Part shown: positions 1 to 64,000 of the stretch, piece by piece
Layout of the letters: each line of letters starts with the position of its first letter
Position numbering within the stretch: position 1 is the stretch's first letter
NCBI GenBank assembly: GCA_010093605.1
Contig: MU004187.1
Coordinates: 248,001 to 312,000, forward strand
From: Lophium mytilinum
Lineage: Eukaryota
Direction of reading: 5' to 3'
DNA length: 64,000 nt
Program-made: the position numbers and the translations under genes
Notes under the pieces: model-generated
The model's input: only the letters and a program-made list of their open reading frames with translations
What the model was told of the DNA's origin: nothing
Databases searched by the model: none

Positions 1-66
1 GCAGACGGGGAGGAGAAAAAGAAAAAGAAGAAAAAGAAGGCAGAGGTCGTGGAGGAGGAAGCGTGA
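1..66 (+). CDS. 3' end of a gene with a lysine-rich KKE/D tail (Cbf5/Nop56/Nop58-like, partial)
   Basis: Frame 1 reads ADGEEKKKKKKKKKAEVVEEEA* (TGA 64-66). Such tails are typical of nucleolar snoRNP core proteins, but the tail alone is not diagnostic. Confidence 0.45.
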   Translation, partial: ADGEEKKKKKKKKAEVVEEEA

Positions 67-645
67 TCATGCTATGCAGTGTGCGGATTTCATTACCTAG
101 CGGAGCCAAGGCGTTCGGGGCGCTCTTGTATTGAAGTGGATGCAGGTGGGCAGTCCTTCTTAGTTTGAAAATAGGCTTCTTTTGAGGTACATTTACGTCC
201 TGCAGAATCAACCTATAGTTCGTCAATCAACTATACTACGTAATTGAAACATAGTGCAATTGAAGTATCTACTAAGCGGGTAAGGGTCCGAAGACTCTCC
301 TGGAACCATTGGATTGCTAAGGTCTATAGTACCCTGTTCTATATAATACACAGCGGCTGGCGTCAGACACAAGAAAAGTCTAATGGTGGTAATAAAAGTG
401 TACTAAGACGCTACTAAAGACAAAACCCTAGGGATTGGAAAGCCGGCGGTGTTGCCTGTGAGGTGTATAATCGACGCTCTACGACGATTGATCCAAAGCC
501 ACAGTAGTGAGGTTGGCTTATTTTTTCTCGTCCGGTCCGGACCATTGCAGGTAAGATGTTGCATTAATTGGGTATACCCATCCACCTTACGACTGCGGTC
601 CAACCAGTCGAATTCCTGTCCTCGGAATGTACTGCAAACAGCGTG

Positions 646-1927
646 CTATCCAGCGATCAAAACCCACAGAAGGAAGACTAGTATCAACCGTCAGTAAACT
701 ATGAGACAAGCAACGTATACCCAAGAGAGGAGACTCACATATCATCAACACCCCAAACATCTTAGCCACAAGCCACCTATTCCCACTAACCCGACTCCAA
801 TACTTCATCAACTCCCGCTGTGCCCCTTGCACATTGTCCACCACATCCTCAGTGTTCGCATCGATCCGCTGTATCTGTTCGCTCTGTTCCGACACCATCT
901 GCGCCAGCTGCCCAAATATACTCCCGAGCTCACTGATCGTGCTTTCGATCGTCTCAATCGCCTGGCCCCGCTGTTGGATATACTGATTCTGCGGCTGCGC
1001 CTCCTCCATCAGCATCAACTGCGCATCACTCTGCGGCCCGTTCCGCATGAGCGCCGAGCTCCCCGCCGGATCTAACGACAGCAGATCCTGTTGCGCCGCA
1101 CTCGTATTCTGGAACCCAGGCGACCGCCCTCTTTGCGGCGTCTGGTTATACAGCGGGCTATCCGTCCTCTGCGGGTCCAGCGACTGGCTATGGCTCGCCG
1201 CCACATTCACAAAGTTCTCCGTCCGGCTCCTGCTCGCCTGAATATTCTTAGTCCGCACCTCCAGCACTTCGCGGAAGTTTCCCCCAACGTCCGCGAGCTT
1301 GCTCTGCAGTAGCATAAGCACATTCTGGTTATGCTCCCCAACTTGATCGCCGCCGCCAGGTTTCGCGTTCGGGTGTTGCGAGGCTGTCAGGCTCTGGAGT
1401 CCCTTGATGTTCGTGTTCAGCGCCGACAGGTCTTGCTTGATGATGTATGTGAGTTCGTTGATCTCCACGGGCCGGTCGTCAAAGAGGGTCTTCCGCTTTG
1501 CGAGTTCCGCCAGGCGCTCCAGCTTGCCCATTGTGCCTGAGATCCCGCGACCGATGTCTGCAGCTCGCCGCGCGAACTCGGAGCGCTTGCTGGTAGCGGC
1601 AGCGCCATTTGCGGAGGCTTGTTGGGAGGGGGAGAGGAGCGGTTGGCGGCCCTGTTGGCCCTGCTGGGGGTGGCGGCGCTGGGCTTGGACGAGGATGGAG
1701 CGGAATTCGGCGGTGCGGTCTTGTATAGAGGTGGTCGCCATGTCGGAGGTGATTATGCGGCGGGAGCGCGCGAAACGGGCGGAGGAGTTGGCGTCGTAAA
1801 GGGTGTTGGTGATGTTGCTGGCCGAAGCGTTCATGAAATGCATCGGCAGGGGCCACGGGGGGTGAGCGATCGGCTAGTTGAGTCAGCATCAGCCTACGCT
1901 TCTTTGGGCGTAGATTACACTCACCAT
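646..1927 (-). CDS. SED5: Cis-Golgi t-SNARE syntaxin-5/Sed5
   Basis: N-peptide MATTSIQDRTAEF (ATG 1741), LFDDRPVEINELT, and SNARE motif IESTISELGSIFGQLA. Intron 738-678 precedes the TM tail FFLLWVLIAG*. An upstream ATG exon (1927-1925) plus intron 1924-1874 is in frame. Confidence 0.95.
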
Positions 1928-2322
1928 CTTGTTGCTTTATTGTGAGGTTGAACAGTTACAGTGATGTTGGACTAAAGATGTGAGACGAGACACTGGTCAG
2001 GAAACAAGCACAAATATGGGTTCGGGGGCGTGGAGACATGTGCTGTATAGCAAGAACAAGTGTCAACTTCTTTTCATTGGCTCGAATGCTCACATGATGC
2101 TATCTTTAAATCATCACGTTTCCAGACTTCTTATAGCGAATTCAGGAGCAACGCCTCTCGCTTCCATCCGTGTAACGAATAGCCAGTACTTCTAGTTCAT
2201 TCTTATGAACGGTCCGATAATGTTTCGAACAGTCGATTGACACATCGCCCCGATACTTAGAATGTCGAAGCATTTCAGGAACAGTGTTAGAGTAGTTGTA
2301 CACATACCTACATAGAGGCAAG

Positions 2323-5903: not shown

Positions 5904-7448
5904 TTATATAGACCATCCAGCAGCCGCCTTAGCAGCGCCACGTTTGGAGAATGTTGACGGGGCGACAGAAGGGGCGACAGCAGGAACGAGCTCCGGGACA
6001 GCTTCTCCATCCTGAATATCAAGAACCTCCATCCCGTCGACGAGACTCGAATGCAGGAGTCTCAGATTGGCCGCTGTGACTGGACCGCCTTGTGAGGGGA
6101 GCACGTCCTCATCTTCTGTGGGCGGGAGTGTTCCAACCTCAGGCTGAACAGGAAGGCCCTCTTCGGGCTCGCTGTCATCTTCTTCCTCTTCGCCTTCTGC
6201 CCGTCCTTCGCCCTCGACACCGTCCGCACCGACTTCTTTCATGTAAGCATCCAGTTCTTTCGCCATCTTTCTGCTGAACCCTGAGGCTTCAACCGCAATA
6301 TCCAACCGATTTTGAACAACCTTGATAGACTCTGCAAAGAAGGGGCCCGGATCATCGCTAGTGAAGTGGAACCTCCTAGAGAAGAAGCGCTTGATACACG
6401 CCACATCCCTATCGAAATAATACTGTGCATTTGGGTGGTCGATCGAAACCATTTGCGGAAAATCAATGATAGTCGGGACGAGCGTAATCGATTCCGCGGG
6501 CTCCTTCACCTCATCGCCGCCTTCAGGCATCGGCGCGTTCCCTAGTGCATCCAGTTCTTGCTCCTCCTCGATATCTGGTAGCGAATGAGTCCTCCCATCC
6601 ACCCCTGTCTTCCTCTCCTCAATGAGAATGTTGAACTCATTGTAATCTCCGTGAATGAGCCCCACTCCCGCTAACCGCACAATCAGTGCCAACAGCTCTG
6701 CATACAGCCCTGCCGGATCTGGGACACTGCTGATCTGCCGCAGGGGGAACGCATTAATCAGACTCATTACAATCGTGTGTCTACTCTGCGCCACTGGTAC
6801 TGGCACTGGGAAGTCGTTCTCATGTAGCGCTTTCATGATCGCAAACTCTTTCAGTGCCGCGAGCCGGCTCATATACATCCATGATCCAGACGTTCGATTA
6901 CGGAGATAGTCGCGATTAGCCTTGACAGTGCGGAAGGAAATACGGCCCAGACGATGGATCTTGAGCACGCGCTGGATGCCTTCTGCGGAAGCGACGACGT
7001 AGATGTCGGATTCTTTGCCAACGCCGATTTGGTTGCCGACGCTGTAGATGCTAGTGGATTTGCGGTGGGTATTGAGGGCGAGGTAGTCCAGGCCGCCGTA
7101 GGTTAGGCGGTAGCCGTCGTCTTGTCATGTGTGAGTGGGTGATATTGGAGAAATGAAAGTAGACGTCAACGAAAGAATGACTGAACTGAGACCTACATTT
7201 CGCGTTTTGGATTTTTGCGATCAGGTTTACTTTGGCTAGATTGGATATATTTCTATGAACGCTGTTCCGGAGGCCAGATAGTTGTCCTATCAGTTTCGTG
7301 GGAACAAGTTCATGGTTTTTGCTGCCCATTTCCACCTGTGGGATATTAGTTCCGTTCTATCCAAATTTTCGCAGAGCGCACGCACAGCAGTAAGAACTCT
7401 CCAGTCCTCGGCCGTCAGGTAGCGGATAGCCTTGGTATCTAACTTCAT
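5904..7448 (-). CDS. RIO2: Atypical kinase Rio2 (pre-40S maturation)
   Basis: MKLDTKAIRYLTAEDWRVLTA, EMGSKNHELVP, GVGKESDIY, LIHGDYNEFNILI and IIDFPQMVS; two introns. Confidence 0.96.
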
Positions 7449-7682: not shown

Positions 7683-8598
7683 CTAGTAGCTTCCTCGTCC
7701 CCTCGGAGTGAACCCTCGACTACCTCCCCTAGGGGCACCACGAGAAGACTGGAACCCTCCGCCTCGTCCTCCAAAGCCTCTGGATCCGCCCCTGCCACCC
7801 CGATCACCGAAGCCTCCCCGTCCTCGTGGTGCGCCTCGTCCGCGTGAGAATCCTCCTCGAGCACCCCCAGCTCCTCCGCGACCACCACCGGCACGTTTTG
7901 GTTTTGCAGCTCCTGTACACTCAATTAGTACCGTAGTAAGACCGTTTAGTAGAGGAAAGACATACCTGGTGGGGGCTTCGGCTTCGGCAAGAACCTGTCC
8001 AAGTCGTCAGCACTTGTCCTCAAATCTCATCCGGGGCAGCCATACTTCTCCAACGGTAATAGTTTATCCCCGCCAATGAAGAACTTGTCCCCGTTCTTGA
8101 ACGATTCCGCTTGGATGCCTTCTTGCGGCTTGATGGTGAAGTAGACCTGGTTCAGCGGCCCTAGGATCTCGTCGACTTTTCCAATCGGTGTCTGCGCTCG
8201 CATTAGCTCCTGTGTTCGCAATACTTCGACCAGTATTCCTGTAGTATTCGCATACCTTGTTCTCGAGGTAAATCGGCGCATTGAAGTACGGGATCTTCAC
8301 ATTGATCGACTCGCACACGATCTCGCCTTCGCAGGCATGAACGAATTTGCCCATCTCTGCCCCACTTTAGCTTCATTCTTTCTCTTTCCAAAGATCTAGT
8401 ATTTACGCACCAAATACAGCGGATGGGGGTCCGTATGATTGCTGGTAAGCTCCTCCGCGACCTGCAAAGATATTAGCTAGCTGTTACAGCTTTTTGCGCA
8501 GGTCAAGACGCACCTCCGCGTGGTGTGAAATTGCTTCCGCCGCCTCGTCCGCCAGGGGAGAAGCCGCCGCGGCCTCGAAAACCGCCTCGGGATGCCAT
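7683..8598 (-). CDS. GAR1: H/ACA snoRNP protein Gar1
   Basis: RGG-rich termini; core [30 protein letters not shown] / [19 protein letters not shown]; several short introns. Confidence 0.96.
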
Positions 8599-8911: not shown

Positions 8912-10184
8912 CTACCGCATCAACGCTGCCAGCGCCCGCTTCATCCGCTGCGCCTTGATCTTGAGCAGCTTGACGCTCTCTAGAAACAGCTCATCGCTCT
9001 CCCACTGACCTGTGCTCTCGACCTTGAAGATGAAGTGATCCCTGACACGACCGAGCTTGACCTTGTCCTTTAACTCTGCATGTCGTAAGCACTCTCTCGA
9101 CACGGTGTCTCGCATCGTGTCCTCCACTACTGCCTTCATCTCTCCCTCATGCCCCTTATATTCACTACCTTCTCTCTGCCCTTCTTCACGTGTGATTGGC
9201 TCCAGTCCAATCACACCTTTCGGGAAGCATCGTGCGAACTTCTCTGCGTCTGGGCCGATTATAGGTTTCAGGATGTCGATGGTTGGTAGAAGTCGGTACG
9301 ACGCTGTTGCGACGGGGGAAAACTTGGCGTGGTCGGCACCAATGCCCTTCATGGCGTACATCCTCATGTTGATCTTCTGACCGGGTCGTAGCTTGGCTAT
9401 CAGAATGTCTGGATTCGCGGCTCGGACAGGGTCGTCGGCAAATCTTGTAATTTGCTGGCCAGTTGGCTCGTAGATGATGTCACGGGCATACACTGGGCCT
9501 AAGTCAGCCGAGAAACTCCTGCTGGGATCATGGAGGCTTACCGTTGTGGTTGTTGTACAGCTTGTTCGGGTCTGTCTCTCCATTCACAGCTCTCATCTGA
9601 CCACCTGCCTGCCATGCGCATTCTATCTGTAAGTTCAGAATGCAAACGTTGTAGTCGTTGTGTGTGCTGCCTTCTGGGTCCTCATCGTTCCCCTTCTGGA
9701 ACCAATGCATCCACCTCAAGCCCTCTCGACTGCCTCTGAATGGTATAAGGCCCATGCGGTGGCATAAGACTTCATCTTGAATGATTGATGTGTTGTGTAT
9801 CACGAAAATATCTTCGATGGCGACAGTGGGGACTTCAGCAATGAGGATGCGCCTGAAGGCGTTTGCGACGGATGCATCGAGGCCAATGAGCGAAAAGGAG
9901 GAGTCGAATTGGTCGTTAGAATGGAACTTGACATTAAAGGTCTGGTAGAGTCAGCGTGTGTCCTCTAGAGTACGGCGAGCACTCTCTTACCCTTTTGAAG
10001 AAGTCTAGGTCCCAAGAATGATCTTCACCTGGCCATTGTCCGGGGAAGTCTGTCGAAGTGACGTTGGTCACTGTCTCAGCATTTATGCCGACGATCTGTG
10101 GAAGACGCATTAGATATATGGTGTGTTATGGCATGCAATTGCTTCAATTACCTTTCGTCGGTCGAGCTCTGCCTGGCCGACCAT
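8912..10184 (-). CDS. RPC40: RNA polymerase I/III shared subunit AC40
   Basis: DASVANAFRRILIAEVPTVAIE, NTSIIQDEVLCHRMGLIP, ILIAKLRPGQ, GIGADHAKFSPVATASYRLLP and DHFIFKVESTG; introns. Confidence 0.96.
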
Positions 10185-10512
10185 GCTCGTCGATTGTCAA
10201 GCAATGGCGGGGTGTTGTTCTGGTGGATCTGTGGCTACGCTTCGAGCGAAATCATGCGGTTTCTTCTGGCAAGAGTGGAGAAGTCGCTGCGGTGTATGTG
10301 GAAGTTCTTTGGGGGTAGGTTTCGCGCGAAAGAGATATAGTCAGAGTTGGAGTGGAGAGTTCCAAGCTGGTGAACAAATTTTGAGACAGAGGCCGCCAAA
10401 GCCCTCTAATTTCTACACCGCCCCGGCGAATGGTTTATCCGTCGGCATGAAGCCTCGAAAAGTTTCTGTCCCGTTTTCCGACGCCTATCGCAAGTCGCAA
10501 AATCTAAACACA

Positions 10513-12807
10513 ATGGCACCCGAACGTAAAAAGCCCAGGCTTTCTGATCCAGAGGTGTTGGACGTAGTACCGGAGACTACGCCTGAAAAAACAACCAAAG
10601 ACGCCCCTGAGCAGCGAAAGTCGCTTTTTGTCAGGTCTCTCCCAGCTACAGTAACGACAGAAGAGCTCACGGAATACTTTTCAAATTCATATCCTATCCG
10701 ACACGCCGTTGCTGTTCTCGACCCAGCTACCAAGCAATGCAAGGGCTACGGATTCGTCACATTTGCCGACGCTGAGGATGCACAACGAGCACGAGAAGAG
10801 TTCAATGGCTCGAAATTCAAGGGACAAAAGATCAAGGTCGAACTTGCCGAGTCTCGACATCGAGATGGGGAGAAAGGTACTGCACCAAGTGCGGTAGCTG
10901 AGGCGAAGGCTGCTAGAGAAGAGAAGAAGAAAGAGAAGCGTGAGGTACAACAACCGCCTAAACTCATCATTCGAAATCTTCCATGGAGCATCAAAACACC
11001 GGAAGATTTGTCCGTACTGTTCCGCAGCTTCGGGAAGGTCAAATTTGCCACAATCCCAAAACAGAAGACTGGTCTGCAGCCTGGTTTCGGGTTCATCACC
11101 ATGAGGGGGCGCAAGAATGCCGAGAAGGCACTGGAGGTCATCAATGGAAAAGAGGTGGATGGCAGGACTCTCGCTGTCGATTGGGCTGTGGAGAAGGCTA
11201 CATGGCAGACGCTACAAGAGGAGGCTAAGCCGGCGACTGCAGACAAGGAAGAGGTAGATGATGCAGAAGAAGCAGACTCGGATGCGTCCGACGCCGAAAG
11301 TGATGGCAGTGCAAATTCGGACGAAGACGAAGACGACTTTGACGAGGAATTCGACGAGAATGAGGACTTTGAGGACGACTCTGCGCCCAAGCACGACTCG
11401 AAACCAAAAGACGATCCAACTACTCTCTTCATCCGCAACCTTCCTTTCAGCGCATCAGACGACTCACTTCGAGAGCACTTTTCAAGATTCGGCCCCATTC
11501 GTTACGCACGCATAGTGTTAGATCAGGCGACCGAACGCCCGAGAGGTACCGGCTTCGTCAGTTTCTACAATTCAGTAGACGCAGACTCCTGTCTCAAGAG
11601 CCTCCCCATAATCAATGTCACGCACGACGTCAAAGCCAAGAAAGATGGCTCGACCATTACCATCGCACACTCCGTTCTCCAAGACTCCTCCGCGGATCCC
11701 ACGGGCGCCTACACCATGGACGGCCGCATCCTCTCCATCACGCGTGCCGTCGACCGCGTCTCCGCAAACCGCCTCGCCACCGAAAGTGCCGCATCCCGCT
11801 TCAACCGCGACAAAGACAAGCGCCGCCTCTACCTCCTCTCCGAAGGCACAATCGCCTCCAACTCGCCCTTATACGCTTCCCTCTCGCCCTCCGAAGTTGC
11901 CATGCGTGAAGCGAGCGCAACCCAGCGCCGCAAGCTCATCGAAAGCAATCCCTCGCTCCACCTCTCCCTCACCCGCCTCGCCATCCGCAACATCCCCCGC
12001 AGCATCACTTCCAAAGACCTGAAAGCACTCGCGCGCCAGGCCGTCGTCGGTTTCGCAACCGACGTCAAAGAAGGCAAGCGCACGCGCCTCTCCAAGGAAG
12101 AGCTCGCGCGCGGCGGCGCCGAGATGCGCGACGCGGAAACGGACCGCAAGAAGCGCGGCCAGGGCGTCGTCAAGCAGGCCAAAGTCGTCTTCGAGACGAC
12201 CGAAGGCGGGAAAGTTGCTGAATCCAGCGGCGCGGGACGGAGTCGCGGGTACGGCTTCATCGAGTATTACACCCACCGCAGCGCGCTGATGGGATTGCGG
12301 TGGTTGAATGGACACGCGGTCGATTATAGGACGATGGTGAAGCTTACGAAGGGGAAGAATAAGAAGGATGATGTGGAGGCGAATCAGGATCGGAAGAAGA
12401 GGTTGATTGTGGAGTTTGCGATCGAGAATGCGCAGATTGTGGTTAGGCGGAAGGAGAGGGAGGATAAGGCGAAGGGCAGGGGGGAGACGAGGGAGGATAG
12501 GGCGCCCAGGACAGGTGGACGTGATGATAGGGGTAGGAGGGAGGAGAGGGGGGATAGGGGGAAGGATGATAGATGGGGTGGGCAGAAGAGGAAGAGGGAT
12601 GATGGAGATGCCGGGGCTGAGCATAAGCCAAGGAGGAATGGGTTGAGTTATGAGGAGAATTCGAAGAGGTTCAAGAAAGGTAGGGGAGGGAAAGGTGAGG
12701 AGGGTGGTGCGGCACCGAAAGCGAAGCCAGATAAGCCAGCGGAGCCAGTGAAGGGGCAATTCGGGATGCAAAGGAAACGTATGGCGCAGAGACAAAAGCG
12801 CGGCTAA
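10513..12807 (+). CDS. NOP4: Nucleolar multi-RRM protein Nop4/RBM28 (60S biogenesis)
   Basis: Four RRMs (LFVRSLP/KGYGFVTF; LIIRNLPWS; LFIRNLPF/RGTGFV; LAIRNIP/SRGYGFIEY), acidic linker and DKRRLYLLSEG. Start taken at MAPERKK. Confidence 0.93.
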   Translation: MAPERKKPRLSDPEVLDVVPETTPEKTTKDAPEQRKSLFVRSLPATVTTEELTEYFSNSYPIRHAVAVLDPATKQCKGYGFVTFADAEDAQRAREEFNGSKFKGQKIKVELAESRHRDGEKGTAPSAVAEAKAAREEKKKEKREVQQPPKLIIRNLPWSIKTPEDLSVLFRSFGKVKFATIPKQKTGLQPGFGFITMRGRKNAEKALEVINGKEVDGRTLAVDWAVEKATWQTLQEEAKPATADKEEVDDAEEADSDASDAESDGSANSDEDEDDFDEEFDENEDFEDDSAPKHDSKPKDDPTTLFIRNLPFSASDDSLREHFSRFGPIRYARIVLDQATERPRGTGFVSFYNSVDADSCLKSLPIINVTHDVKAKKDGSTITIAHSVLQDSSADPTGAYTMDGRILSITRAVDRVSANRLATESAASRFNRDKDKRRLYLLSEGTIASNSPLYASLSPSEVAMREASATQRRKLIESNPSLHLSLTRLAIRNIPRSITSKDLKALARQAVVGFATDVKEGKRTRLSKEELARGGAEMRDAETDRKKRGQGVVKQAKVVFETTEGGKVAESSGAGRSRGYGFIEYYTHRSALMGLRWLNGHAVDYRTMVKLTKGKNKKDDVEANQDRKKRLIVEFAIENAQIVVRRKEREDKAKGRGETREDRAPRTGGRDDRGRREERGDRGKDDRWGGQKRKRDDGDAGAEHKPRRNGLSYEENSKRFKKGRGGKGEEGGAAPKAKPDKPAEPVKGQFGMQRKRMAQRQKRG

Positions 12808-16664: not shown

Positions 16665-18448
16665 TCATAGCATTGCAGACCAGTCAGGCGTGACAACGAA
16701 TTTGCCCCTGACCTGTCCAAATCCCAACGCATCACCTTCATCCCCGGGGCCCACCCGCTCACTCTGCGGCGTGATACGTGTGACAACCGTGTCTTGCAAG
16801 AAATGGGTACTCATGCCCTTCTTGATCTCCAGGCTCATGCCGCCCCAATTCAAAGTCACCTTGCCGGACTTGTGGACTCGTAGCTTGCCTACCCTTCCAG
16901 ACGTGACTGTTGACGAGACTGGCTTGGGTTGAGCGTCTTCTTCGATCTTGACGGACGTCGGATTTGTCTCGGCGATGATAGGAGCCGGTTCCTCCTGCGC
17001 TTCCTTTTTGACGGCTGGTGGGAGGAGGGCAGGAATGATGGGCGGGAATTGGAAGAGGTAGACGCGGTCCTCTTTCATGTCTCTTGTTTGCTCGGTATCT
17101 TTCATTTCGATGTCCGCATCTTTATCTTTGCTTTGTGCCGCGGCCTGCGTCTGGCCGAGCTCAACCAGAATATCTTCAAGTTCTGCCTGCGAACGCTCCC
17201 ATTCTTGCTTCTCTTCTTCGGTTTGAAGTGAGGGCTTTGAGTCGTGGACGCCAGACCGACGGCGTGTGCGGCCTTTGCCTTTGAGGTGAGACTTCTTGTC
17301 CAGCTGTGGCGATTGTGGCTCTTCTTTTTCAGCTGTCTCCTCTTCTGCGACCTCCGGGGCCTCGACTGCTTCTGGGGCTGTGATAGGCTCATCGTCGTCG
17401 TCGACTGGTTCGTCTTTGATCCGAACTTCCTCGTCTTTGTCGTCTGAGTCCTGCCACATGCCTTTGTATGGCTTTCGCACTTCGGTGATCTCAATATCCT
17501 TAGCTTTCGCCTTGCCTTTGCGGGTTGCAGATTCGGTAGCTGGGTCCGTGGTAGAATCCCCCTTCTCCGCTGTCTGCTTCGCAACTTTCGCCGAGGTCGC
17601 ATTGCTGGCTTCAGTATTGATGCCGACCACACGATCCTGGTGCTCTCTTCGCGGAATACGAATGGGCATGAGCATGCGCGGAATACTCGACTCTCTCGGC
17701 TTGCCCTCCTGATCACCCGCTTCGTCGCCAGACGAGACATCAATGGCATCGATGTCCAGACGAGGGCCGAACTCGCCGTCGTCATCACCAGAAGAGATAT
17801 ACCCACCATCCTGCGTCGTCTTCTCCTTCTTAATCCTCGACGTGAAGCCTAACGCGCGGTTCATCTCATCATCTTCGTCATCTTCGCCTTTCATCTCGTT
17901 CTTGATGTACGCTCGTGACCCAGACGCGCCGCCGCTGAAGGCGCCAGATGTCTGCATGCGCTTGGCCATATCTAGACCTCAATTAGCACCGCCGCTTCCA
18001 CCTAGCAAAAAAATCGCTTCTTCATTAACATACCAGCCGTACTCCTCCCCTGCGAAAACGGTCCGCTGATCACATCCCCCATGAACCCTCCTCGTCCTCG
18101 TCCCCGTGCCCCCTCCCCTCGTCCCCTTCCTCGAGTGCCCCGGAAAGATCCACGGTTTGCACGTCGAGCTACAGCATCTCGCTCTGCTTTTCTCGACCTC
18201 TCCAACTCCAAAGCTTCCTTTTCGAGTTGATCACGCTCTGCTTTGCTGCGGCGGCCGACGAAATTTGGTTTTCGGGTTGCGCGGGGAGCTCGTGTAGAAC
18301 TGGCGCCTCGCTTGGTACCTCTCTTTGCTGGTTTTGGCGCTGGTTCTGATGTTGGTGCTGCGGCAAGTGTCGTAGTGGAGGTTGAAGATGAAGAAGTATT
18401 AGTCGAGGCCTGGTCTTGCGCAGTTGGGGGCGGCGGTGCGTCCGCCAT
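16665..18448 (-). CDS. RPC53: RNA polymerase III subunit C53/RPC4
   Basis: C-terminal RPC4 domain YLFQFPP...GRVGKLRVHKSGKVTLNWG...GQVRGKFVVTPDW; one intron near 18.0 kb. Confidence 0.93.
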
Positions 18449-18712
18449 GATGAATAAATTTTTCTAGTTGTGGTGGGAGTGTCTTAAGGTCGTAATGTAT
18501 TTCCCGAGTTTTGAAGTTGGTCAGTTGGTGATGTGTGGTTGCGGTGGAGTGAATTTTATAAAGATGGCTGGATGGGTCATCAAAAACCGAAGTGAGGAAC
18601 GTTAATTAGAGAGGATCGGAATCGATAAGGGTCACATGTTGAAATCTTGGCGATGGGCAAACTATTTTTTTCTCACAGCTCTCCAGCCACACATTTACAT
18701 CACCAATCGACA

Positions 18713-39051: not shown

Positions 39052-39210
39052 GGCACAAAAGAGACTCACGGAAGACAAAGCGAAGAAAAAGAGGTGACGA
39101 GGTTCGTCGAGGCTGAAACTACCTATGGATGCGGCTGAGCCTCTGGAGTTTCAAGTCACATGGTGTGGGGTAATCAGCTCTACGTATCTATTCTAGCCTT
39201 GTAGCAAGCT

Positions 39211-44179: not shown

Positions 44180-44319
44180 GGGCTGGACCCACCATTCTAC
44201 TTAGCTTTATAGCTATACATCTTCAAAGAGTTCAAGTTACCATTCTGCTAATAAAAGCTGCCTTCAGGCGTATATTTGTGCACTACTCTTGCCTTGGAAG
44301 TTTGGAGTGATCTGCGTCG

Positions 44320-44580
44320 CTTGCTTCTTAAGAGCTTAAATCAATTGCGCCGCTATTGCGGCAGTAGGTGCTTAATGAGTTGCTGCCTTCCGTTCCTTTA
44401 GTGCTTAGAGCTTTGGTAATCTTGTTAGCCTGCTTATATAGCGAACGTAAATATAAGACGGTAAGGGGTTCATGGGTTGGTAACTGGGGTATACGAGAAG
44501 TAGTCCCTTGAGTTAAAGAAGTGGCGGTGGCAATTAACCGTCTAAAGTGGGTTGGAGAGGATAGTAACCCCAATGTAATA
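44320..44580 (-). mobile_element. Possible decayed Fot1/pogo-like transposase C-terminal fragment
   Basis: TpA-rich patch; translation ..LRSLYKQANKITKALSTKGTE.. loosely resembles pogo C-terminal segments. Confidence 0.25.
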
Positions 44581-44600
44581 CCATTTGACTAAATTGCTGG

Positions 44601-47057
44601 TCAACGGTACTGTTTCCCGTATTGAGGCTTCTTTACAGCGTTCGTAGACAGTGCGCAGTGTTCTATGCCGTCGATTGCGCCCTCCGCTATGAGACCCCAT
44701 TGAACAGCCTTTAGATGTGGATCAACTTCATCTGACCGTGGGTGGCAAGCAGCGCTGATTACCAAACTACAGGATGCCGCAAGCGGAATATTGATCCTCC
44801 AACGTCGCAAGCTCATCGCAAGGATTAAGCAAAAAAGTAGGGTGAAGGTGATGGAAAGCACTAGGAAGCTCAATCTCGAGAAGCCGCAAGCAGACTTAGA
44901 ACCACTAGAAGTTACGAGGATGCCATCCTTGTCTTGTACGTCTATTCGAACGAGAAATAAACTCTGTGACATTAACCAATGTACAAGACAGCTGACCGCG
45001 GTAAGGGGGATTGCGTATCGAAATGGTAGTTGTAGGAAGTAGGTACTTCGCTGTTGTCCTTCTGGCTTTGTAACTCGGAGTCCTTTCCTAGATAGGGCAA
45101 GGTTGTCCCATTCAATGGCGTTCGCTATACAGGTGAAGAGTCCATTGAATGTCAGGTAGCCGATAGAGAAGAGGAGCTGGGAACAATTGGCTAGTCCAGC
45201 GTTGTAGAGGGTTCCTATTGTATCGAATCTACCCGCTCCGATAGAGAGCGTTGTAGTAGATGAAGTACCCCAAGAGCCCAGGCCACCATCATCGCCAGTC
45301 GATATGAAAACTATGATCATACCGGCCACGATCATGAAGAGACAGCTAGATTAGATCGCATCGTCAATCGTTGATACTAGAAAGGAGTTGGACGTAATGA
45401 GGAGTGCTCCCTTACATTGACATTCCAAATAGCTGCCTTCCATCACTGATTGCCTCACCATACATTCGCTTACGAGGCTTCCAAATACCGTTAAGACGTG
45501 AGTCCAACTTCGCGACCTTCTCTTCACTAACTAGGACGCTCATTTTTATCTGGCCGCCGAGATTAATAAGCATATCGTCTTTAGAAAGCGAACACAGCCC
45601 TTTCGTTACTGCATCCGGCCTTCCCAAGAACGACGCAGCGGCGTCTCCAAGTGTGACGAGATAAAGAGGACGCTCGTCCAAGAGTACAAGTAGCATTGCT
45701 ATCGCCTTCACAATGTTTGAGACAATAACGATAAGCATGAAGAACAAACTGATCTCCAATCTGCTATTCGCACCCCCTCTTGTTTCTGCGAAGGCGTAGC
45801 GTATGTGAATAGGGTAATGCTGATCCGACTGCAAGACTGATGCCGGAATCCATCCTTCGGCGCTCAGGCCTGGTACTGTAAAAGATGTTGAGTCCTTGTC
45901 AATGACCTCCGTTCTGTTTGTATGGTCAAAGAACTCAATATTGTTCAAACTGTTTGATGTGTTCGTGGAGTAAGTATTGTTTATGACCGAATAATAGGTT
46001 TGGAGGTCCAGGGATATCTCATCGGCGACGAGGAATAAATCGCCCAGGCCCGAGACGTAACTAGAACCGTATGAGCTGCGCCATTGCCCATTTGTCAAAT
46101 TTTGGTGCTTTGCTGAAACATTCTGCGCTGCTGAAATGTTCAGGAAAGTGTACTCGGGGGACATATATTCCACCACTGTCGTATCAAACTGATTTCCAAC
46201 GACAACATCGAAAACCGCCGAGTTATAGCTGTCAATATTAGACCAAATGGATAAAAATCCCGATAAACTTACAAAATGTGAAGTGGAATCGAAGAAATTC
46301 CCAATATGCACCAGAGGATTGACCTCTTAGTAGAGATGTGTCGAAGATTACGCGTGCTTAGGATACCGATATCGAGGTAGTTGCCTTCAGAGTGAACTTT
46401 GTCGACTTCCTCTCTCGTTGGAGAACTAAGGACTTGCATGGTGTAGTTGCTCGCACTTAACAAGAGCGTGCTGAGAATGTTGACGAGAATGTGAAATGCT
46501 GTACTCCAGCTAGTCACATACTCGGCTGAGCCTCGTACTAGGTGTGCGATGCCACGACTAAAGCCACCAGATACAGCGGCACCCGCTATCAAGATAACCA
46601 CGTTTGCCAAGCAAACAAAGACCGCTGTACAAAAGCCTGCCAGTACGCCCATACGCCATCCATCAAAGCGCCTGGCTTTCGCCCAACTGTTGAACTTTGT
46701 ACGCAAATGTAAGGCTTTGATGGAATCTACAAGAGCAGATATGGGGTTCCTGGTTTGATTTGCTGTGAGAGGAAGAGGTTGGGCTTCGGGAGAACTGGAA
46801 TTAATTATCAGCAGATGCCATAGGAGCAGCCTTGCTCAGCGAAAGACATACTGTAGATTACGAAGCTCTGTCCAATCTCCTTCGCCTGAGACTGTATAAT
46901 GGGACGAACGAGCCGAATGGCTCTCCTCGGTATCACTGTCGTCTTGGGTTCTCTCGGGTTCTCCTGGCGCCTGGGTTCTCTCCAACCCTTCTTGTGGGTC
47001 GGGGTTCATGACGCGTAGATAGCGGTACTCCTTCACAGGAGAAGGAGGATCGGACAT
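44601..47057 (-). CDS. DUF6536-like multi-pass membrane protein
   Basis: GWRMGV..HILVNILSTLLLSASNYTMQVLSSPTREEVDKVH..LDIGILSTRNL..SSIPLHI-YNSAVF, LVTLGDAAASFL, QRSTYFLQLPFRY and CSLVISAACHP; three introns. Confidence 0.85.
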
Positions 47058-49259: not shown

Positions 49260-50597
49260 CTATATTTTCGCCGCTACGTTGGCCAAGAATGCAGCATCGT
49301 CAACCCTCCCTTCTTTCTGGAGGGCCGTCGTAAGCTCCGCGAGCGCCTTTGGGGTTTCTTCCCCCAAAATTCGGCAAAACTTCCGCAGTGACGAGGAGAG
49401 AACCTTCTTGATTCCGGGATCCGTGATGTCCCCACTCCGTACGAGGGGCAGAGCCCACTGTATAGCGGACTTCAGCAGCGGCTGCTTTCTCTCTGGTAAT
49501 GCTCCTAGGGAGGTATTGAGGTGGTCAAGCGCCTGTCCAAGAGCGCTTGCAAATGCGGGGGATGTCTGCGACACGCCTATGAGAGGTGCTCGGAATTCGC
49601 ACATCGCAGCAGCGGCGCTATTCGGAGATGTCTGGCGGAGATGATCGAGCACATGTGACAGAATTTTCCGCAGGCAGGCGACCGTAGAAGCATCGAAATC
49701 GTTGAACATGGTAAAGAACTCCTCGGCAAAGCTTGTGTTATCCTTGAACTCGCTCATCGCAGCGTCAAAAACGGCAAGTGGGATAGCACCTGAAAGTGCA
49801 GGGGAGGAAGCCAGATTCTGCAGTGCGGTTTGATCCACAGCATCGGTAGTGGCAAGACTCGGATTGATATCTTCCGCCGTGAGAGACGGCAAAAGAATCA
49901 TATCCTCTGTATCGTCTTGATCCTGGGTTTTTGTGGTCGGATCGGCGTCAAGTCCTAGAATCTTCCTTCGGGTCGCAATTTTTGCGATATAGTTCATCTC
50001 CAGCTTGGCCCACTGTATCCACATAACCTTCGAGTGTTTACAGAACCGTAGTCCACGCTGCATATAACTCCTCGCATTCGTGTAATCTGCCTGAGTGTCT
50101 ACTGCATAGCGCGCCGCATATATCCATAGCTCCGGCTTTGTTGGGTGTAATCGCAGCAAACTCGCTAGTATATCGTTGAGTTTCTTGAAGGCCTTCTCTT
50201 TCCGCGCAAACTCGATATACTGCATCCAGAGGCCAATATCGGCGGGAAACTTTCGCGTTCCACGTTGTAGGACGAAGAAAATGCGCTTCTGGCCTGTGAA
50301 TCCGGGGACTTTGACACCTAGTCTCTTCACTCTGTGTTTCCGGAGCGCTTCGAGGTTCATCTCGTACTCAGCATAGCGGGCGTAGTCTGAGGCGTGTGAG
50401 CCGCGGGAGTTGATAGCGTGCTCGAAGCCAGAGCGCTTCTTTGCGAGTGAGGTGATTTCATCCTGGGAATTGTTAGAAATGCGGAACAAGTGGAGCTACG
50501 CACATACTCTTGTGAAGATTTTCTTGACCTCAAGCTCGCGCAGCTCAGGAACTGACTGTTCTAAGAAGAAGCGCGCCTTGTCTGCAGCGTTTGCCAT
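49260..50597 (-). CDS. UTP6: SSU processome subunit Utp6 (HAT repeats)
   Basis: ADKARFFLEQSVPEL..IFT-DEITSLAKKRSGFEH, DYARYAEYEMNL, LHPTKPELWIYAA and ARSYMQRGLRF. Confidence 0.95.
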
Positions 50598-50743
50598 GGT
50601 TGATGAGGTTGTGAAGGGGTGGTGGTTCCGTCTTGAACTTTTTAATGTGGGGAACGATCGCCAAGATTTCACCTCCGAAGATTTTTGGACCTCGAGCTTC
50701 AACACCACTTCGCGTCTACACAAACGGCAATACTAGGAGGACC

Positions 50744-52504
50744 ATGGCTCTAATTGGCACCAAAAGAAAAAGGGGGACCGAAGATCAGGAGCGGAACCTA
50801 AAAGTAAAGTCCAAATCGAAGTCGAAGCCCATCAGGAAGCCCACGACCGACGACGATAGCGAAGATGCCGAAGATACTGGCGCAGAGAAGATACTACTTC
50901 TCGAATCACAAATTCTCGAATCGCGCCGTCACTACAACAACATTGCTACATTGATAGCGCTGGCCGAAGGAAAGCAAGACGAGGGACCCTCCACACTGGC
51001 AGCTGTAGCCCTATGTCGAGTCTTCTGCCGAATGAAGTCTGCTGGGGACATGAGCATGAGCAAAAGCACACCGGAGGCAGAAGCAGTCATCGTAAAATGG
51101 CTGAAGGCCCGGTATCAGGACTATGTTGAAGTTCTCTTGGAACTATACCTGCAGAACGGAGAGGAAGCCGAGCAGTCAACCGCATTGACTCTGCTCATGC
51201 GCCTTGTGAAGCAGGACTTGCAAGATGAAGACGACAAGGCGGCCAAGAAGACACTCGAGAAGCTGGTCTCAAGGCTATTGCTGCTGCCGGAGGGAAGTTC
51301 TACGCGAGAAGAGTTCGGCGAGAAGTACCTTCAAGTATACGACGACATACGATTCTATACCTTCGAAGCTATCGCGTATGTACTCTCTCCTTTGTAACAT
51401 ACACATCCACTAACACCTCATACAGCTCTATCTTCTCCTCCCACCAAGACTCCTCCTCTCTCCCGCTCTTTACAACGAATACTCTCACGCTACTCTCCCC
51501 CCTCACAAATCCCCCCACCACCCCGTCCTCTATAACCTCCTTCCACGGCCCCCCGCCCCCCTCAAAATCCCACCTCCTATCCCACAACGCGCACAAAACC
51601 ACCGCCCAAACCACCTGGCTCGCCCTCCTCCGCACGCCCCTCACGCCCGCGCACCGCAAAACCCTCCTAACCCTCCTAACCCCCTCCATCCTCCCCTGGC
51701 TCACGCGGCCCGAACTCCTCATGGACTTCCTGACCGACAGCTACAACGCGGGTGGCTCGACCTCCCTCCTCGCGCTCTCCGGCCTCTTCTACCTCATGCG
51801 CACGAAGAACCTCGACTACCCCTCCTTCTACCCAAAGCTCTACTCCCTGCTCGACGCCGACCTCCTGCACTCGAAACACCGCAGCAAGTTCTTCCGCCTG
51901 CTCGACGTCTTCATGAGCTCCTCCCACCTGCCCGCCGCGCTTGTCGCTAGCTTTATCAAACGGCTTTCCCGATTATCGCTCCTCGCGCCCCCGGCTGCGA
52001 TCGTGGTGGTCGTGCCATGGGCGTACAACATGTTCAAGCGGCATCCGGCATGCACATTTATGCTGCACCGCGAGAACCACGCGGCGGGGTACGTCGACCC
52101 GTTCGATATGAGCGAGGCGGACCCGACGAAGACGCGCGCGATCGAGAGTTCGGTGTGGGAGCTCGAGACGCTGGCGGGGCACTACCATCCCAACGTGGCG
52201 ACGCTGGCGGGGGTGCTGGGGGAGCAGTTCACGAAGCGGGGGTATGAGGTTGAGGATTTCTTGGGCATGGGGTATAAGACTGTGAGTCATTCTTCACCTT
52301 GCCTTTCATTCAGTGTGAACAGTGTATGCATGAGAACTTGGGCTAATTCTGTGTTTGTAGATTATCGATGCAGAGCTAGCGAAGGATATCAAGAAAGCGC
52401 CTGTGATTGAGTACGAGATCCCGCGACACATTTTCACGAGCGAGGAGGAAGGGGAGTTGAGCACGTTAGGGACGTTGATGGGGAAGGTTTTTGAGTCGAG
52501 GTAG
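50744..52504 (+). CDS. NOC4: Nucleolar complex protein Noc4 (CBF/Mak21 domain)
   Basis: YDDIRFY, LMDFLTDSYN.GG..SLLALSGLF, NLDYPSFYPKLYSLLD, HLPAALVASFIKRLSRL and AIESSVWEL..HYHPNV; two introns. Confidence 0.95.
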
Positions 52505-57496: not shown

Positions 57497-58629
57497 TTAC
57501 TCGGCCTGGATTTCAGCAATCTTAGCCTTGACACGCTCCTCCCTCTCGGCCTTGGTGAGCTTCTTCTGCTTATACTTCAAGCTCTCCTTCTTCCACTCTT
57601 CCTTGGTCTTCTTGTTGCCCTCGTCCTCGTCCTTCTTGAACGGGTCCGCGCGGATCTGCTTGTGCGCCTCGGTGTACAGCTCCTCCAAGCCCTCGGCCTC
57701 AATGTCGTCGTCGATGTAGCCCTGGAACTGCGACTTGTAGCGCTCCTCGTCGTCGTCGGCGAGCGTTTCCATGTACTCGGCAACATGGCCGCCGAAAATG
57801 TACTTGCGCAGCGTCTCAGCGTCGAGCTCCTTGCTCTCGATGTCGAAGCCCGGGAAGCGGTTCTCGGAGTGGGGGATGTAGAGGCCGCCGTCAGACGCAC
57901 CCTTCATGGCGCCGAAGACGCGGGCACCGGTGGAAGTGCGCGCCAGACCAACGTCGAGGAAGACCTTGAAGGGGCGGCGGGATTCGCCGTCGTCGCCCTC
58001 CGCGGCCTCAGTCATGGTGAACTCGCCATCAGCCTCTTCAACGCCGAGGAAGTCCTCGTCCAGCTCGAGCTTCTTCAGAGTGCGGCGGGCGAGTAGCAGG
58101 CCGGTGCAGTAGGCAGCCGCCCAGTTGGTGTTGCCGTGGGAGACGCCGTAGCGCTTGAGCTCGTGGCCGTAGGCGGCGCTGAAGACCTTGTCGCCGTTGA
58201 CTTCCGACGTCACGATCTGCGCGATGATGTCGCGGTTGGTGAAGCGGACGACGAGGCGGTACTTGGGTGCGTTGTACTTGTTCTTCGCCTGGGTGATGAG
58301 GCGCTTGCGGGCGTAGTAGTCGGTCTTGCCAACGCGGCGGCGCTTGTACTTCACCTGGTAGCGGCTGCGGTGGTGTTAGTGGTTGCGCAGGGAGATGAAC
58401 AGAGGGAAGGGAAGCTTACGAGAAGTACGCATCGTTCTTGACCTTCTTGGCCTGTCATTGAAACCCCGAGTCAGCAATTGACGCTTCAAACCTTCGAAGC
58501 AACTTGCAGGGACTCCATTCTGTTCAATGGCCTTGGGAGTCGCCTCTAGAGAAGCGACTCCCGAGGAAATGCAGGGCCGTCTAGGCCCTGTCTAGAGGAG
58601 TATTAATCGGGGAGACTTACGAAAGGCAT
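57497..58629 (-). CDS. RPL5: 60S ribosomal protein uL18 (L5)
   Basis: [57 protein letters not shown]. Introns 58620-58452 and 58419-58365. Confidence 0.98.
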
Positions 58630-60003: not shown

Positions 60004-60023
60004 GGCTACTCAGCATCCGTTGT

Positions 60024-61400: not shown

Positions 61401-62107
61401 GATGATTGCTCGAAATGAAAGTAGCCTTAGTTTCCCTCATTCGCTGTAGTTAAAATATCTGAAGACGGTAAACAAACCGCAAAGAGATCGATTGTATACC
61501 TCAGGGACTCGGATGTGACGAACGCGAGGTGTGTCTTGCTGCTAGCTCGTGGTGCGACCTGGCTAGGTATATGTACAATGCCGTTGACGGGCAAGGCTGA
61601 AAACCGTATGCACTGCCACGGTGTCGAGCTGGAATTGGCTTAGCGATTATAATGGATTCGATTAGCTCTCTCTAGGCGATCGTTGCCTGAGTCCAGAATC
61701 GTGCGGGGCGGGAATGATGCAGGGTGGCTGCGCCTCACTTCTATGCTCCACCACTCGTTCTGAGTTCTGCATGGGTGCGCGATACTAGGGGTGGAGGGCT
61801 AGCGCGTGAGATGAAGAATGACGAAATTGACGAAGATAAAAGAAGCGATAATTTTGAAGTCGAGAGGTAGAGTCTGCTGTGTTTTGCTGGGATCAGTGGT
61901 ACATGAATAAACGATCGCTCGTGTTCGAGGAGAGTATACAAGTTCCTATAAACGAATATAGCATGGACCCTTGACTTTCATTAGCGACACGAACAACTGC
62001 TCGGCTCTGACAGAAGAATAGTTCATCGGAATGTCCTAATATATTATAGTAGTACAGTAATCGGTTTCCGCCAAAACGCCAAACACCATATGATCTCCAC
62101 GCCTGAA

Positions 62108-62953
62108 CTACCGGAATTTGCTAACGATAACCGCAACGATGAGCAACACAAGTACGGTGATAATGGCGATGGTAATTATCCGATTTGTAGCCATCCTGAT
62201 TCCGTTAGTGAGTGCTGCTACGCGCAGAGAGAAATCAAGGGGAGATAGTACCTACGGGCCATACCCCGCAACGTCTTGATGCTCCGGTCGGTATAGCTTT
62301 CGCTCTCCAGTAGCGTTCCTCTAGTATGCTCAATCGTCTCCCTCTGTCTGCTCAGATCCGCCAGTGTGTTCCGTCCGATATCCTCAGTCTCCAGTGCGAT
62401 CCTCTGACTTTCCCGAAGACGGCCGCTGCTTCGCTCCAAACGGTCCGTGCCGGAGAGCAGCTGCTGGCGCTGCTCTAGCTGGTCGTCTGTGGTGGGAGCG
62501 TCTGTGTATCGGGATCCAAAGAGCGCTTTGCGGTCGTCCGACAGCGACTTCAGCTTGCGCTTCTGAGAGTCAATGTCCGATTCGTAGTTGCGAAAGCGTT
62601 GGTTGATCTTGGACTTGGCGGGGGCTGGGATGTTGGGTTTCTCGATGCGCATTTGGTCAATCTGCAGAGAAGCACTGCATTAGCATATTGCGATATAAGG
62701 GTCATTGATACCGTGGTTGAGGGTCTATAGCGACTGCAACTCGCTGTCGTCATTCATCAGGCACCAGACTTACAATCTCGTTGGCCTCCTCTAACGCTCG
62801 TTCTGCCGCCCGGACAGCAGCCTTTCGAGGCTCGCCTGATAGTTCTGGGATTTGGTCCAGTTTTTGGTTGAGGTCGGCTTGCACGAGTTTCAGCTCGGCT
62901 TCATAGCTGCTGAAGCGCTCCGAGCCAGCGTCCGAGTCGAGGATGTTTGCCAT
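62108..62953 (-). CDS. VTI1: Qb-SNARE Vti1
   Basis: FSSYEAELKLV, QRQQLLSGTDRLERSSGRL..ALETEDIG..DLSRQRETI, and TM tail IITIAIITVLVLLIVAVIVSKFR*; two introns. Confidence 0.95.
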
Positions 62954-63686
62954 GACGAGGACTGAGGAAGGCGAGGATGTTATGAACAGTCAAAGGCGAT
63001 GCTGAGAGTAGAGGATATATCGTGAGTTCAGGCGATCTGTCGTGGCACTCGGGGGCGGCTTGATGGGTTATGAAGGTCGGAAGATGCAAGGCACATGGGT
63101 AACAGTTGACGTCTCCAATCCTGGAGGCGCAGGCCGCATGATCCTGGTAGCTTGGCGTGCACAACTCTAGTTATGCAATACTAGCGCCGGCAGTTTAGTG
63201 ACTACCTAAGGAAATTTTGTCATGATAAAACGTTTGTATAGCAGCTAGTTAGTTTAAGTAACTTATAGACTAGAACAACCCACAACCCAGACGGCGCCTT
63301 ATGAGGTTTTGAAAGCATAATTGTACATAGACTACCTGGGTATCAACGAGGCATCACAAGTGTGTATGTCCGCTTACCACTGACTGAGGTACCTCCACGC
63401 ATTATCTAAATTCAGTTAAACCTCTTTTTGTTATATCCCTGCATCCCTTGTAGGTGATCTGTGAATACTGGTATGCCGCTGCTTGACTTGCCTCGAGACA
63501 CTTTGAAGAGTTCAAACAAGGTCATCTGCTAAGTTTTTTGGGGGACTTCAGACGACGCTCTTAGAAGTTGTGAAAGGCCTTATGCCGCATGCCCTTGCCG
63601 CCCACGTGATCGGCTCCACTAAAGTTTTCTAACGCCTCACTAAAATTGCTGATCGCGAAAATCCACCACCTGCACAGCTTCAAAAA

Positions 63687-64000
63687 ATGGCACCGCCAAA
63701 GTCACAAAAGGCGTCAAAAGACAAAGATGGACCCATTACGGACCCAAGATTCACAAATTTCCAAACCGATCCACGGTACCGGCTTCCGTCAAGACGCCAC
63801 ACGCATACGAAGCTCGACAAGCGCTTTGCGCACATGCTCAAGGATGACGACTTCTCTCAAAAAGCTAGTGTCGACCGGTATGGACGGAAAGTCGCCAGTG
63901 ATTCAGGCCGAAAAGGGCTGGAGAAGTTCTATCAATTAGAAAATAGTGAAAATGAAGACGAAGAGGAGGACGAAGACGAAGACGAAGAGGAGGACGATGA
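63687..64000 (+). CDS. ESF1: Pre-rRNA processing protein Esf1 (5' part, runs off the window)
   Basis: MAPPK..ITDPRFTNFQTDPRYRLP..KLDKRFAHML.DDDF..VDRYGRK followed by an acidic tract. Confidence 0.9.
   Translation, partial: MAPPKSQKASKDKDGPITDPRFTNFQTDPRYRLPSRRHTHTKLDKRFAHMLKDDDFSQKASVDRYGRKVASDSGRKGLEKFYQLENSENEDEEEDEDEDEEEDD

Follow-up and report, generated by a model that had tools for sequence, protein, structure and literature searches.

A concentration of ribosome-biogenesis genes in a 64-kb stretch of the Lophium mytilinum genome, most likely a derived arrangement of the Mytilinidiaceae

Genes for ribosome biogenesis (RiBi) are a standard example of a eukaryotic regulon with scattered members, in which clustering is known only as pairs. 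A 64-kb stretch of the genome of Lophium mytilinum (Mytilinidiaceae, Dothideomycetes; contig MU004187.1, positions 248,001 to 312,000), referred to here as the window, carries a genuine and, by statistical tests, exceptional concentration of such genes, with 11 verified and one probable member among about 34 genes. The DNA is intron-bearing and has a guanine-cytosine (GC) content of about 0.52. Stop-to-stop open reading frames (ORFs) of at least 60 aa were translated (462 in all), and the 209 that were kept after dropping those shadowed by much longer ones were scanned against Pfam, ambiguous products being compared with PDB sequences. The count of 34 comprises 31 genes with a Pfam family (E <= 1e-3), a 509-aa protein that has none and two edge fragments; ORFs without a Pfam match at about 47-49 kb and at 56.3-57.3 kb may represent further genes. 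Some 25 of the genes are conserved and of housekeeping type, which comes near the figure of about 26 conserved genes given in an earlier account made from the letters of the window alone (the sequence-only reading). Scans of the window for tRNA genes and Rfam RNAs (snoRNA, RNA polymerase (Pol) III genes) found neither.

The verified genes are RIO2, GAR1, RPC40, NOP4, RPC53, LCP5, SRP40, SOF1, UTP6, NOC4 and RPL5 (Table 1). For RIO2, GAR1, RPC53, SRP40, SOF1, UTP6 and RPL5 the Pfam match is specific by itself. RIO2 has at least two exons and its first exon is probably further upstream, while the first exon of RPL5 was located upstream of the tabulated span. The C-terminal tail of GAR1 is RGG-rich, SRP40 carries long acidic-serine tracts, and one exon of UTP6 matches a named L. 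mytilinum protein with 100% identity. RPC40 consists of three exon ORFs with its ATG at 10110, and its best PDB match is RPAC1 (7aoc_C, E 2.8e-62); RPB3 was considered for this product and rejected, the PDB matches to RPB3 reaching only about 1e-8. Similarly, the multi-RRM protein is not MRD1, which is ruled out by the match to 'Nucleolar protein 4' (9qjc_B, E 5.6e-114) over residues 152-824; its jgi and ncbi relatives are named 'nucleolar protein 4'. LCP5 matches a Chaetomium 'lcp5-like' chain (6rxu_CY, E 3.6e-85) and yeast Lcp5 (2.4e-21). The CBF-domain gene, of about 550 aa, is by its length probably NOC4 and not NOC1 or NOC3.

The fragment at the right edge is probably ESF1. It has a NUC153 match at E 0.098, and its first protein-atlas match is 'ESF1 protein (Fragment)' (0.94), followed by NUC153 clusters; the 104-aa fragment found no match in PDB. 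At the left edge, the gene tail ending in a lysine run is too short to assign, and the ORF on the opposite strand has no Pfam or PDB match. Thus, of the 12-13 ribosome-synthesis genes listed by the sequence-only reading, 11 are supported by Pfam and PDB and ESF1 is probable; the 21 codons at the left edge are too few to assign to the KKE-tailed small nucleolar ribonucleoprotein (snoRNP) gene proposed there. The five factors of the small-subunit (SSU) processome named there (LCP5, SOF1, UTP6, NOC4, ESF1) do belong to the set, ESF1 only probably. The Pol I and Pol III subunits and SRP40 are counted in the yeast RiBi regulon. By orthology, membership in the regulon, also called RRB (for rRNA and ribosome biosynthesis), extends to the 11 genes placed by Pfam and PDB and probably to ESF1.

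These genes are laid out as a run of four (RIO2-GAR1-RPC40-NOP4, 5.9-12.8 kb), a run of three (RPC53-LCP5-SRP40, 16.7-22.0 kb), one head-to-head pair (UTP6-NOC4, 49.3-52.4 kb) and three singletons (SOF1 at 30.2-31.9 kb, RPL5 at 57.5 kb and ESF1 at 63.7 kb). The immediate adjacency that characterises RiBi clustering is found in both runs and in the UTP6-NOC4 pair, together with an excess at the level of the window. Five divergent promoters were mapped from start codons. Three of them join one RiBi gene with another across 147-744 bp, and the remaining two lie between SOF1 and PRP3 (226 bp) and between TAD2 and SYF2 (231 bp), again head to head.

The sequence-only reading took RiBi genes to be a small minority of a fungal genome, known in budding yeasts mainly as adjacent pairs. 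This is borne out by the yeast RRB regulon, which numbers 282 of 5,797 genes and whose known clustering consists of adjacent pairs involving 44 genes (PMC3500266). The density in the window is put at about 10-fold over the base rate. If a genome of 11,000 genes and RiBi sets of 282 to 550 genes are assumed, the hypergeometric probability of at least 11 RiBi genes among 34 is 4e-10 to 4e-7, and that of at least 12 is 2e-11 to 4e-8 per window. In random gene orders, 2,000 for each null, the fullest 34-gene window held 9 RiBi genes with a set of K=360; 11 were reached once with K=550, and once under a null in which a quarter of the genes had been placed in pairs beforehand. Taken together, the three nulls reached 11 RiBi genes in 2 of 6,000 permutations.

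An empirical control was provided by 13 long fungal loci anchored on ARO2 and taken from a metagenome scan (L027 was left out as redundant with L029). The rules were the same for controls and window (ORFs of at least 110 aa, E <= 1e-5), and the 6 shortest control ORFs were left out. Only 3 of 63 non-anchor Pfam genes in the controls are of RiBi type (Nop52 in L009, MTR4 in L022 and L023), a rate that agrees with the 4-5% of the literature, against 10 of 28 Pfam genes in the window (Fisher P 3e-4). The difference persists when the controls are counted by distinct families (2/34, P 4e-3) and when two unidentified control WD40 genes are counted as RiBi (P 2e-3 to 1e-2). The earlier claim of a neighbourhood much larger than pairwise clustering therefore holds for density, which is far above pairs and above chance by the hypergeometric test, the permutations and the fungal control loci.

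The genes interleaved with the RiBi genes are mostly of housekeeping type (Table 1). The sequence-only reading had suggested that translation and methyl-donor genes may be part of the neighbourhood, and two eIF2B subunits (gamma and beta), a TAD2-like deaminase and S-adenosylmethionine (SAM) synthetase are indeed interleaved among the RiBi genes. For the gamma gene, the best Pfam match is an epsilon LbH domain below the cut-off, while the PDB matches indicate gamma. The two subunits, of five in eIF2B, are 18 kb apart, for which a simple model gives P of about 9e-5. A second functional coincidence under the same model is the presence of three SNARE genes (SED5, the SNARE-domain gene and VTI1; P 5e-5 if a genome has about 24 SNAREs). 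SYF2 has an apparent short, stop-free in-frame intron, its Pfam match falling in two stretches with an odd hydrophobic insert in the translation. The multi-C2H2 protein, with about seven or more classical fingers, has yeast TFIIIA (8ffz_A, E 8e-8) among its many zinc-finger matches in PDB, although not as the best; were it TFIIIA, the island would gain another gene of rRNA synthesis (5S). The 509-aa protein has no Pfam and no PDB match, and in the protein atlas it finds only fungal 'hypothetical protein' clusters (best 0.98). Between RPL5 and VTI1, accessory-type genes (HET-domain and metallophosphoesterase) lie inside the housekeeping block. The lineage-specific block at 37070-46835 has the lowest GC content of the window (0.46-0.50) and parts two housekeeping halves; it resembles either a piece inserted into two blocks or the seam that joins them.

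Table 1. Features of the 64-kb Lophium mytilinum window, with ribosome-synthesis genes and their shared intergenic regions first and other genes below.
Feature	Position	Strand	Basis or remark
Left-edge gene tail, last 21 codons, ending in a lysine run (ADGEEKKKKKKKKAEVVEEEA*)	1..66	+	Translation; too short to assign
RIO2 kinase, late 40S maturation	5907..7356	-	Pfam RIO1 E 5e-42, Rio2_N E 4.6e-10
GAR1, H/ACA snoRNP	7686..8366	-	Pfam Gar1 E 1e-13 and 1e-8, two exon ORFs
RPC40/RPAC1, shared Pol I and Pol III subunit	8915..10110	-	Pfam RNA_pol_A_bac, RNA_pol_L
RPC40/NOP4 head-to-head intergenic region	10111..10512		403 bp between ATGs
NOP4, four-RRM 60S assembly factor	10513..12804	+	PDB 9qjc_B 'Nucleolar protein 4'
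RPC53/RPC4, Pol III subunit	16668..17969	-	Pfam RNA_pol_Rpc4 E 6e-31
RPC53/LCP5 head-to-head intergenic region	17970..18712		744 bp between ATGs; 684 if LCP5 ATG at 18653
LCP5, U3 snoRNP/SSU processome	18713..19765	+	Pfam Sas10_Utp3 E 2.5e-19
SRP40, Nopp140-like nucleolar snoRNP chaperone	20391..22019	-	Pfam SRP40_C E 1e-19
SOF1, WD40 SSU-processome factor, several exons	30226..31857	-	Pfam Sof1 E 2e-32 and WD40
UTP6, UTP-B, SSU processome, two exons	49263..50597	-	Pfam U3_assoc_6 E 1.8e-19
UTP6/NOC4 head-to-head intergenic region	50598..50743		147 bp between ATGs
NOC4 (probable by length), Nop14-Noc4 module of SSU processome	50744..52407	+	Pfam CBF E 5.6e-51
RPL5/uL18, 5S RNP ribosomal protein	57500..58375	-	Pfam Ribosomal_L5e E 1e-77, Ribosomal_L18_c E 7e-17
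Probable ESF1, N-terminal fragment, first 104 codons, cut by window end	63687..64000	+	
SED5 syntaxin-5	590-1873	-	Pfam
eIF2B gamma	2326-3999	-	PDB 5b04_E E 2e-16
PAM16	4815-5231	+	Pfam
ARO2 chorismate synthase, between run of four and run of three	12993-14235	-	Pfam
SNARE-domain gene, between run of four and run of three	14875-16212	+	Pfam
eIF2B beta	22512-23891	+	PDB 5b04_C E 1.5e-78
Predicted membrane-type protein, 509 aa	24251-25747	-	
NUDIX gene	26944-27897	+	Pfam
TAD2-like deaminase	28203-28885	-	Pfam
SYF2	29116-30003	+	Pfam
PRP3	32083-33840	+	Pfam
Multi-C2H2 protein	34258-35876	+	Pfam
Lineage-specific block: DUF7580 (-), ankyrin (+), DUF6590 (+), DUF6536 (-)	37070..46835		Pfam
TFIIB	53103-54191	-	Pfam
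SAM synthetase	55134-56310	+	Pfam
Metallophosphoesterase	58840-60000	+	Pfam
HET-domain (heterokaryon incompatibility) gene	60027-61400	-	Pfam
VTI1 v-SNARE	62221-62989	-	Pfam

Conservation of the arrangement was followed within the Dothideomycetes with NOP4, RPC40 and UTP6. Co-location was judged from the size of the contig of each protein, the count being limited to clusters that had a single member and a single contig. In Mytilinidion resinicola the three proteins (P0001, P0121, P0242) are 94%, 84% and 87% identical, respectively, to those of Lophium, and each gene is on a contig of 546,695 bp. Outside this genus the genes part company. NOP4 and RPC40, neighbours in Lophium, are on separate contigs in 7/7 other Dothideomycete species (Lepidopterella, Zopfia, Lentithecium, Clohesyomyces, Lophiotrema, Pleomassaria and Amniculicola). 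The same is true of RPC40 and UTP6 in 9/9 species, and of NOP4 and UTP6 in 24/24, including Glonium, Lepidopterella, Saccharata, Aplosporella and many Pleosporales; the locus tags of the latter two genes in Neocucurbitaria sp. VM-36 are Nn.00g116730 and Nn.00g052430. Many of the contigs compared are of Mb scale (2.28, 2.14 and 0.27 Mb for the three genes in Zopfia; 5.88 and 4.75 Mb in Curvularia clavata), while for small ones a contig break between neighbours is possible. Since the three genes are on different Mb-scale contigs elsewhere, inter-chromosomal moves are implied. The genes are dispersed even in Lepidopterella and Glonium, the nearest relatives sampled as judged by NOP4 and UTP6 identity.

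The sequence-only reading had named scattering of the orthologues in related genera as an outcome that would refute its growth-regulon neighbourhood, and outside the immediate family they are scattered everywhere. Synteny conserved across the Pezizomycotina was not seen in the species compared, sharing being confined to Mytilinidion, as equal contig size. The arrangement is, most likely, a derived island of growth genes restricted to the Mytilinidiaceae.

The surroundings of ARO2, which in the window sits between NOP4 and a SNARE gene, point in the same direction. In 80 ARO2-anchored metagenome loci no other gene of the window was found beside ARO2, barring weak cross-hits to a SOF1 WD40 exon (L029, L031) and a RIO2 kinase exon (L047); the anchor is a non-RiBi gene, and the scan is uninformative on RiBi-RiBi neighbourhood in those fungi. 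The 13 control loci show two types of surroundings, M24 peptidase-DnaJ-porin-ARO2-fungal transcription factor and lipoyl ligase-ARO2 (L001, L002, L006, L009, L011, L015 and L010, L013, L016, L022, L023, L029, L031). Both conserved types are absent from the window. That ARO2 is found without its usual neighbourhoods shows that the region was rebuilt, and ARO2 relocated, in the Lophium lineage.

Dispersal extends to other classes, where orthology was taken from the gene names given by the annotators. In Botrytis cinerea B05.10, ten orthologues lie on six chromosomes, none adjacent to another: UTP6 (Bcin02g08110), NOC4 (Bcin02g04160), GAR1 (Bcin02g06650), SOF1 (Bcin05g02880), RIO2 (Bcin12g03160), ESF1 (Bcin12g02850), NOP4 (Bcin16g04670), RPC40 (Bcin06g05640), LCP5 (Bcin06g07560) and RPL5 (Bcin14g04230) (PMC5821092 supplements; RPC53 and SRP40 are missing from the accessible lists). 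All ten appear in one 'up' list of that source (sheet S7a). In Aspergillus fumigatus, GAR1 (Afu4g13690), SOF1 (Afu1g06290), NOP4 (Afu4g06250) and NOC4 (Afu8g05430) occupy four unlinked sites on three chromosomes beside unrelated genes (phosphatidylserine synthase, threonyl-tRNA synthetase, progesterone-binding protein, swi10, ATP4), and all four increase 8- to 17-fold between conidia and 1 h of germination (PMC4869263, supplement file 4; the accessible part of the table has no UTP6 or RIO2 by name). Since in Botrytis and Aspergillus the orthologues are regulated with growth without lying together, their co-regulation does not require clustering. The NCU locus numbers of Neurospora crassa follow chromosomal position. 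Seven genes of this species, GAR1 (NCU11699), ESF1 (NCU04485), LCP5 (NCU07331), NOP4 (NCU06217), NOC4 (NCU00501), SOF1 (NCU01595) and RIO2 (NCU07722), have no nearby numbers, and RIO2 and SOF1 are flanked by genes for proteasome subunits and for unrelated enzymes (PMC4169166, Table S1, as far as accessible).

How might such an island have arisen? We tentatively favour rearrangement followed by retention for the island as a whole, with confidence a little short of even. Rearrangements in the stem lineage of the Mytilinidiaceae would have brought growth-regulated genes together, and their adjacency would then have been kept as mildly favoured and hard to undo. An inversion breakpoint in a short shared divergent promoter (147, 403 or 744 bp) would harm two essential genes at once, so that joins of essential genes over divergent promoters of 150-750 bp could pile up like a ratchet; this step would serve a RiBi-based and an essential-gene explanation alike. 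A co-expressed run could also share one open chromatin domain. By analogy with the fungi in which these orthologues rise and fall together although scattered, co-regulation most likely still acts in trans on each gene separately, and the island would tighten or stabilise expression, not create it.

Several observations weigh against this explanation. Firstly, the finding concerns one locus, and the same-scaffold evidence from Mytilinidion is equality of contig size, not gene order. Secondly, non-RiBi genes and the 10-kb lineage-specific block break up the island. Thirdly, the statistics depend on the assumed sizes of genome and regulon, and the control loci, which share a single anchor gene and are in part syntenic among themselves, are a rough check. 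Fourthly, the promoters do not resemble those of yeast RiBi genes, in which the elements are PAC (polymerase A and C box; GCGATGAGC core) and RRPE (rRNA-processing element; AAAAATTTT core). The PAC core CGATGAG has 21 matches in the window against 11.9 expected, a number reached in 0 of 100 shuffles; however, all 21 are inside gene or ORF spans and none is in the five mapped divergent promoters, and the excess probably reflects Asp-Glu-rich coding sequence instead of promoter elements. AAAATTTT has no match in the window, and a k-mer comparison of 9 RiBi with 12 other promoters gave weak candidates only, with no consistent context. Promoters of the yeast RiBi type were thus not found in the window; the motifs are those of yeast, and other fungi may use others.

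A final point on the same side concerns the essential character of the neighbourhood, from which the strongest alternative derives. Of the roughly 25 conserved genes, about 18 are orthologous to genes that we take to be essential in yeast (SED5, GCD1, PAM16, RIO2, GAR1, RPC40, NOP4, RPC53, LCP5, GCD7, TAD2, SOF1, PRP3, UTP6, NOC4, SUA7, RPL5 and VTI1, plus ESF1), and the non-RiBi neighbours are mostly so too. With essentiality assigned in this way, and 1,100 to 1,500 essential orthologues per 11,000 genes, the probability of at least 18 among 34 is 4e-10 to 6e-8. The island could therefore consist of dosage-sensitive essential genes of many pathways, assembled by selection or by a rearrangement ratchet, with RiBi dominating as the largest essential and highly co-expressed class and clustering lowering noise or recombination load. 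The over-representation of SNARE genes (P 5e-5) and eIF2B subunits (P 9e-5) would fit, as would head-to-head pairs that are RiBi/non-RiBi (SOF1-PRP3) or non-RiBi on both sides (TAD2-SYF2). Nevertheless, RiBi genes remain in excess among the essential orthologues (11 of 19 against a presumed 20% or so, binomial P 3e-4), and their runs of four and three are uninterrupted. Furthermore, the clustering of essential genes in yeast is presumably a weak statistical trend and not a block with a majority of essential genes. We regard this explanation as unlikely, but as one to be taken seriously.

It is tempting to see here a true 'regulon island', in which unlinked RiBi genes, some of them from other chromosomes, were repeatedly relocated into one chromatin domain that switches as a unit with growth and probably continues beyond the window. 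This strong form is doubtful, and we rate it a shade lower still than the essential-gene explanation. If it is true, it would be the first ribosome-assembly supercluster in any eukaryote, and a natural experiment on the operon-like evolution of a housekeeping regulon.

The window could also be a neutral accident of Dothideomycete rearrangement, the extreme tail picked from very many windows: about 250,000 were scanned, with any functional coincidence flagged, no other lineage compared shows the arrangement, and no shared promoter motif was found. Also in its favour, the most generous null, with 550 RiBi-type genes, did reach 11 in 1 of 2,000 random genomes. At the probabilities given above for at least 12 of 34, however, even 250,000 fungal windows yield at most about 0.01 expected cases, and a count alone gives no credit for contiguous runs or for three RiBi-RiBi divergent pairs. 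In addition, the arrangement has lasted at least since Lophium and Mytilinidion split. Because of the P values, the contiguous runs and this persistence in two genera, pure chance is improbable. An ancient Pezizomycotina supercluster retained in Lophium and related genera, for which support is limited to the window and its sister genus, is hardly credible at all, being refuted at the depth tested by dispersal in Botrytis, A. fumigatus, N. crassa and every Dothideomycete pair compared (7/7, 24/24 and 9/9).

Within one family, the 12-gene concentration is a dated and polarised case, with the genes scattered in every outgroup and brought together in two genera. The case can be used to ask what assembles housekeeping clusters, whether co-expression, the noise of essential genes or shared promoters that cannot be broken. 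If the window is a neutral extreme, it still calibrates how far chance and mesosynteny can go.

A full-text literature search turned up no description of a large cluster of RiBi genes; papers beyond those searched could hold one. Three known systems invite comparison. The first is the mesosynteny of Dothideomycetes, reportedly described by Hane in 2011 and Ohm in 2012, in which gene order is quickly scrambled between orders while the chromosome is kept. This fits an ARO2 without shared neighbours and the dispersal of NOP4, RPC40 and UTP6, but mesosynteny keeps genes on one chromosome, whereas these three are on different Mb-scale contigs in other species. The second is the clustering of essential genes in yeast, which Pal and Hurst in 2003 and Batada and Hurst in 2007 are said to have linked to low recombination and low noise as a weak genome-wide trend. 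The window is similar in its presumed essential orthologues from several pathways, its dense packing and its many divergent promoters; it differs in that over half of its genes are presumed essential orthologues, with one pathway supplying most of them.

The closest system is that of adjacent RiBi genes. A review of the RP (ribosomal protein) and RiBi regulons reports clustered members with differing partners in S. cerevisiae, C. albicans and S. pombe, and its accessible part describes neither a large RiBi cluster nor a case from a filamentous fungus (PMC7653285). The RRB pairs known from Wade (2006), Arnone and McAlear, and Arnone et al. (2012; PMC3500266, in the sections accessible) resemble the window in gene class, in divergent and tandem adjacency and in a non-random excess, and partner identity shifts between lineages there (S. 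cerevisiae against S. pombe) as it does here; the yeast RRP15-NOC4 pair is not among the pairs of the Lophium window. For N. crassa and A. nidulans the RRB analysis is entered as 'N/A' in the same source. Tighter co-expression of adjacent members was shown in that system; for the Lophium island it is a prediction. The difference is chiefly one of scale: in yeast, 44 of 282 RRB genes are found in pairs spread over the genome, whereas Lophium has 11-12 within 64 kb, in runs of four and three (PMC3500266 for yeast). If rearrangement and retention built it, the RiBi island would be the known pairing of adjacent RiBi genes in a larger form that is specific to its lineage.

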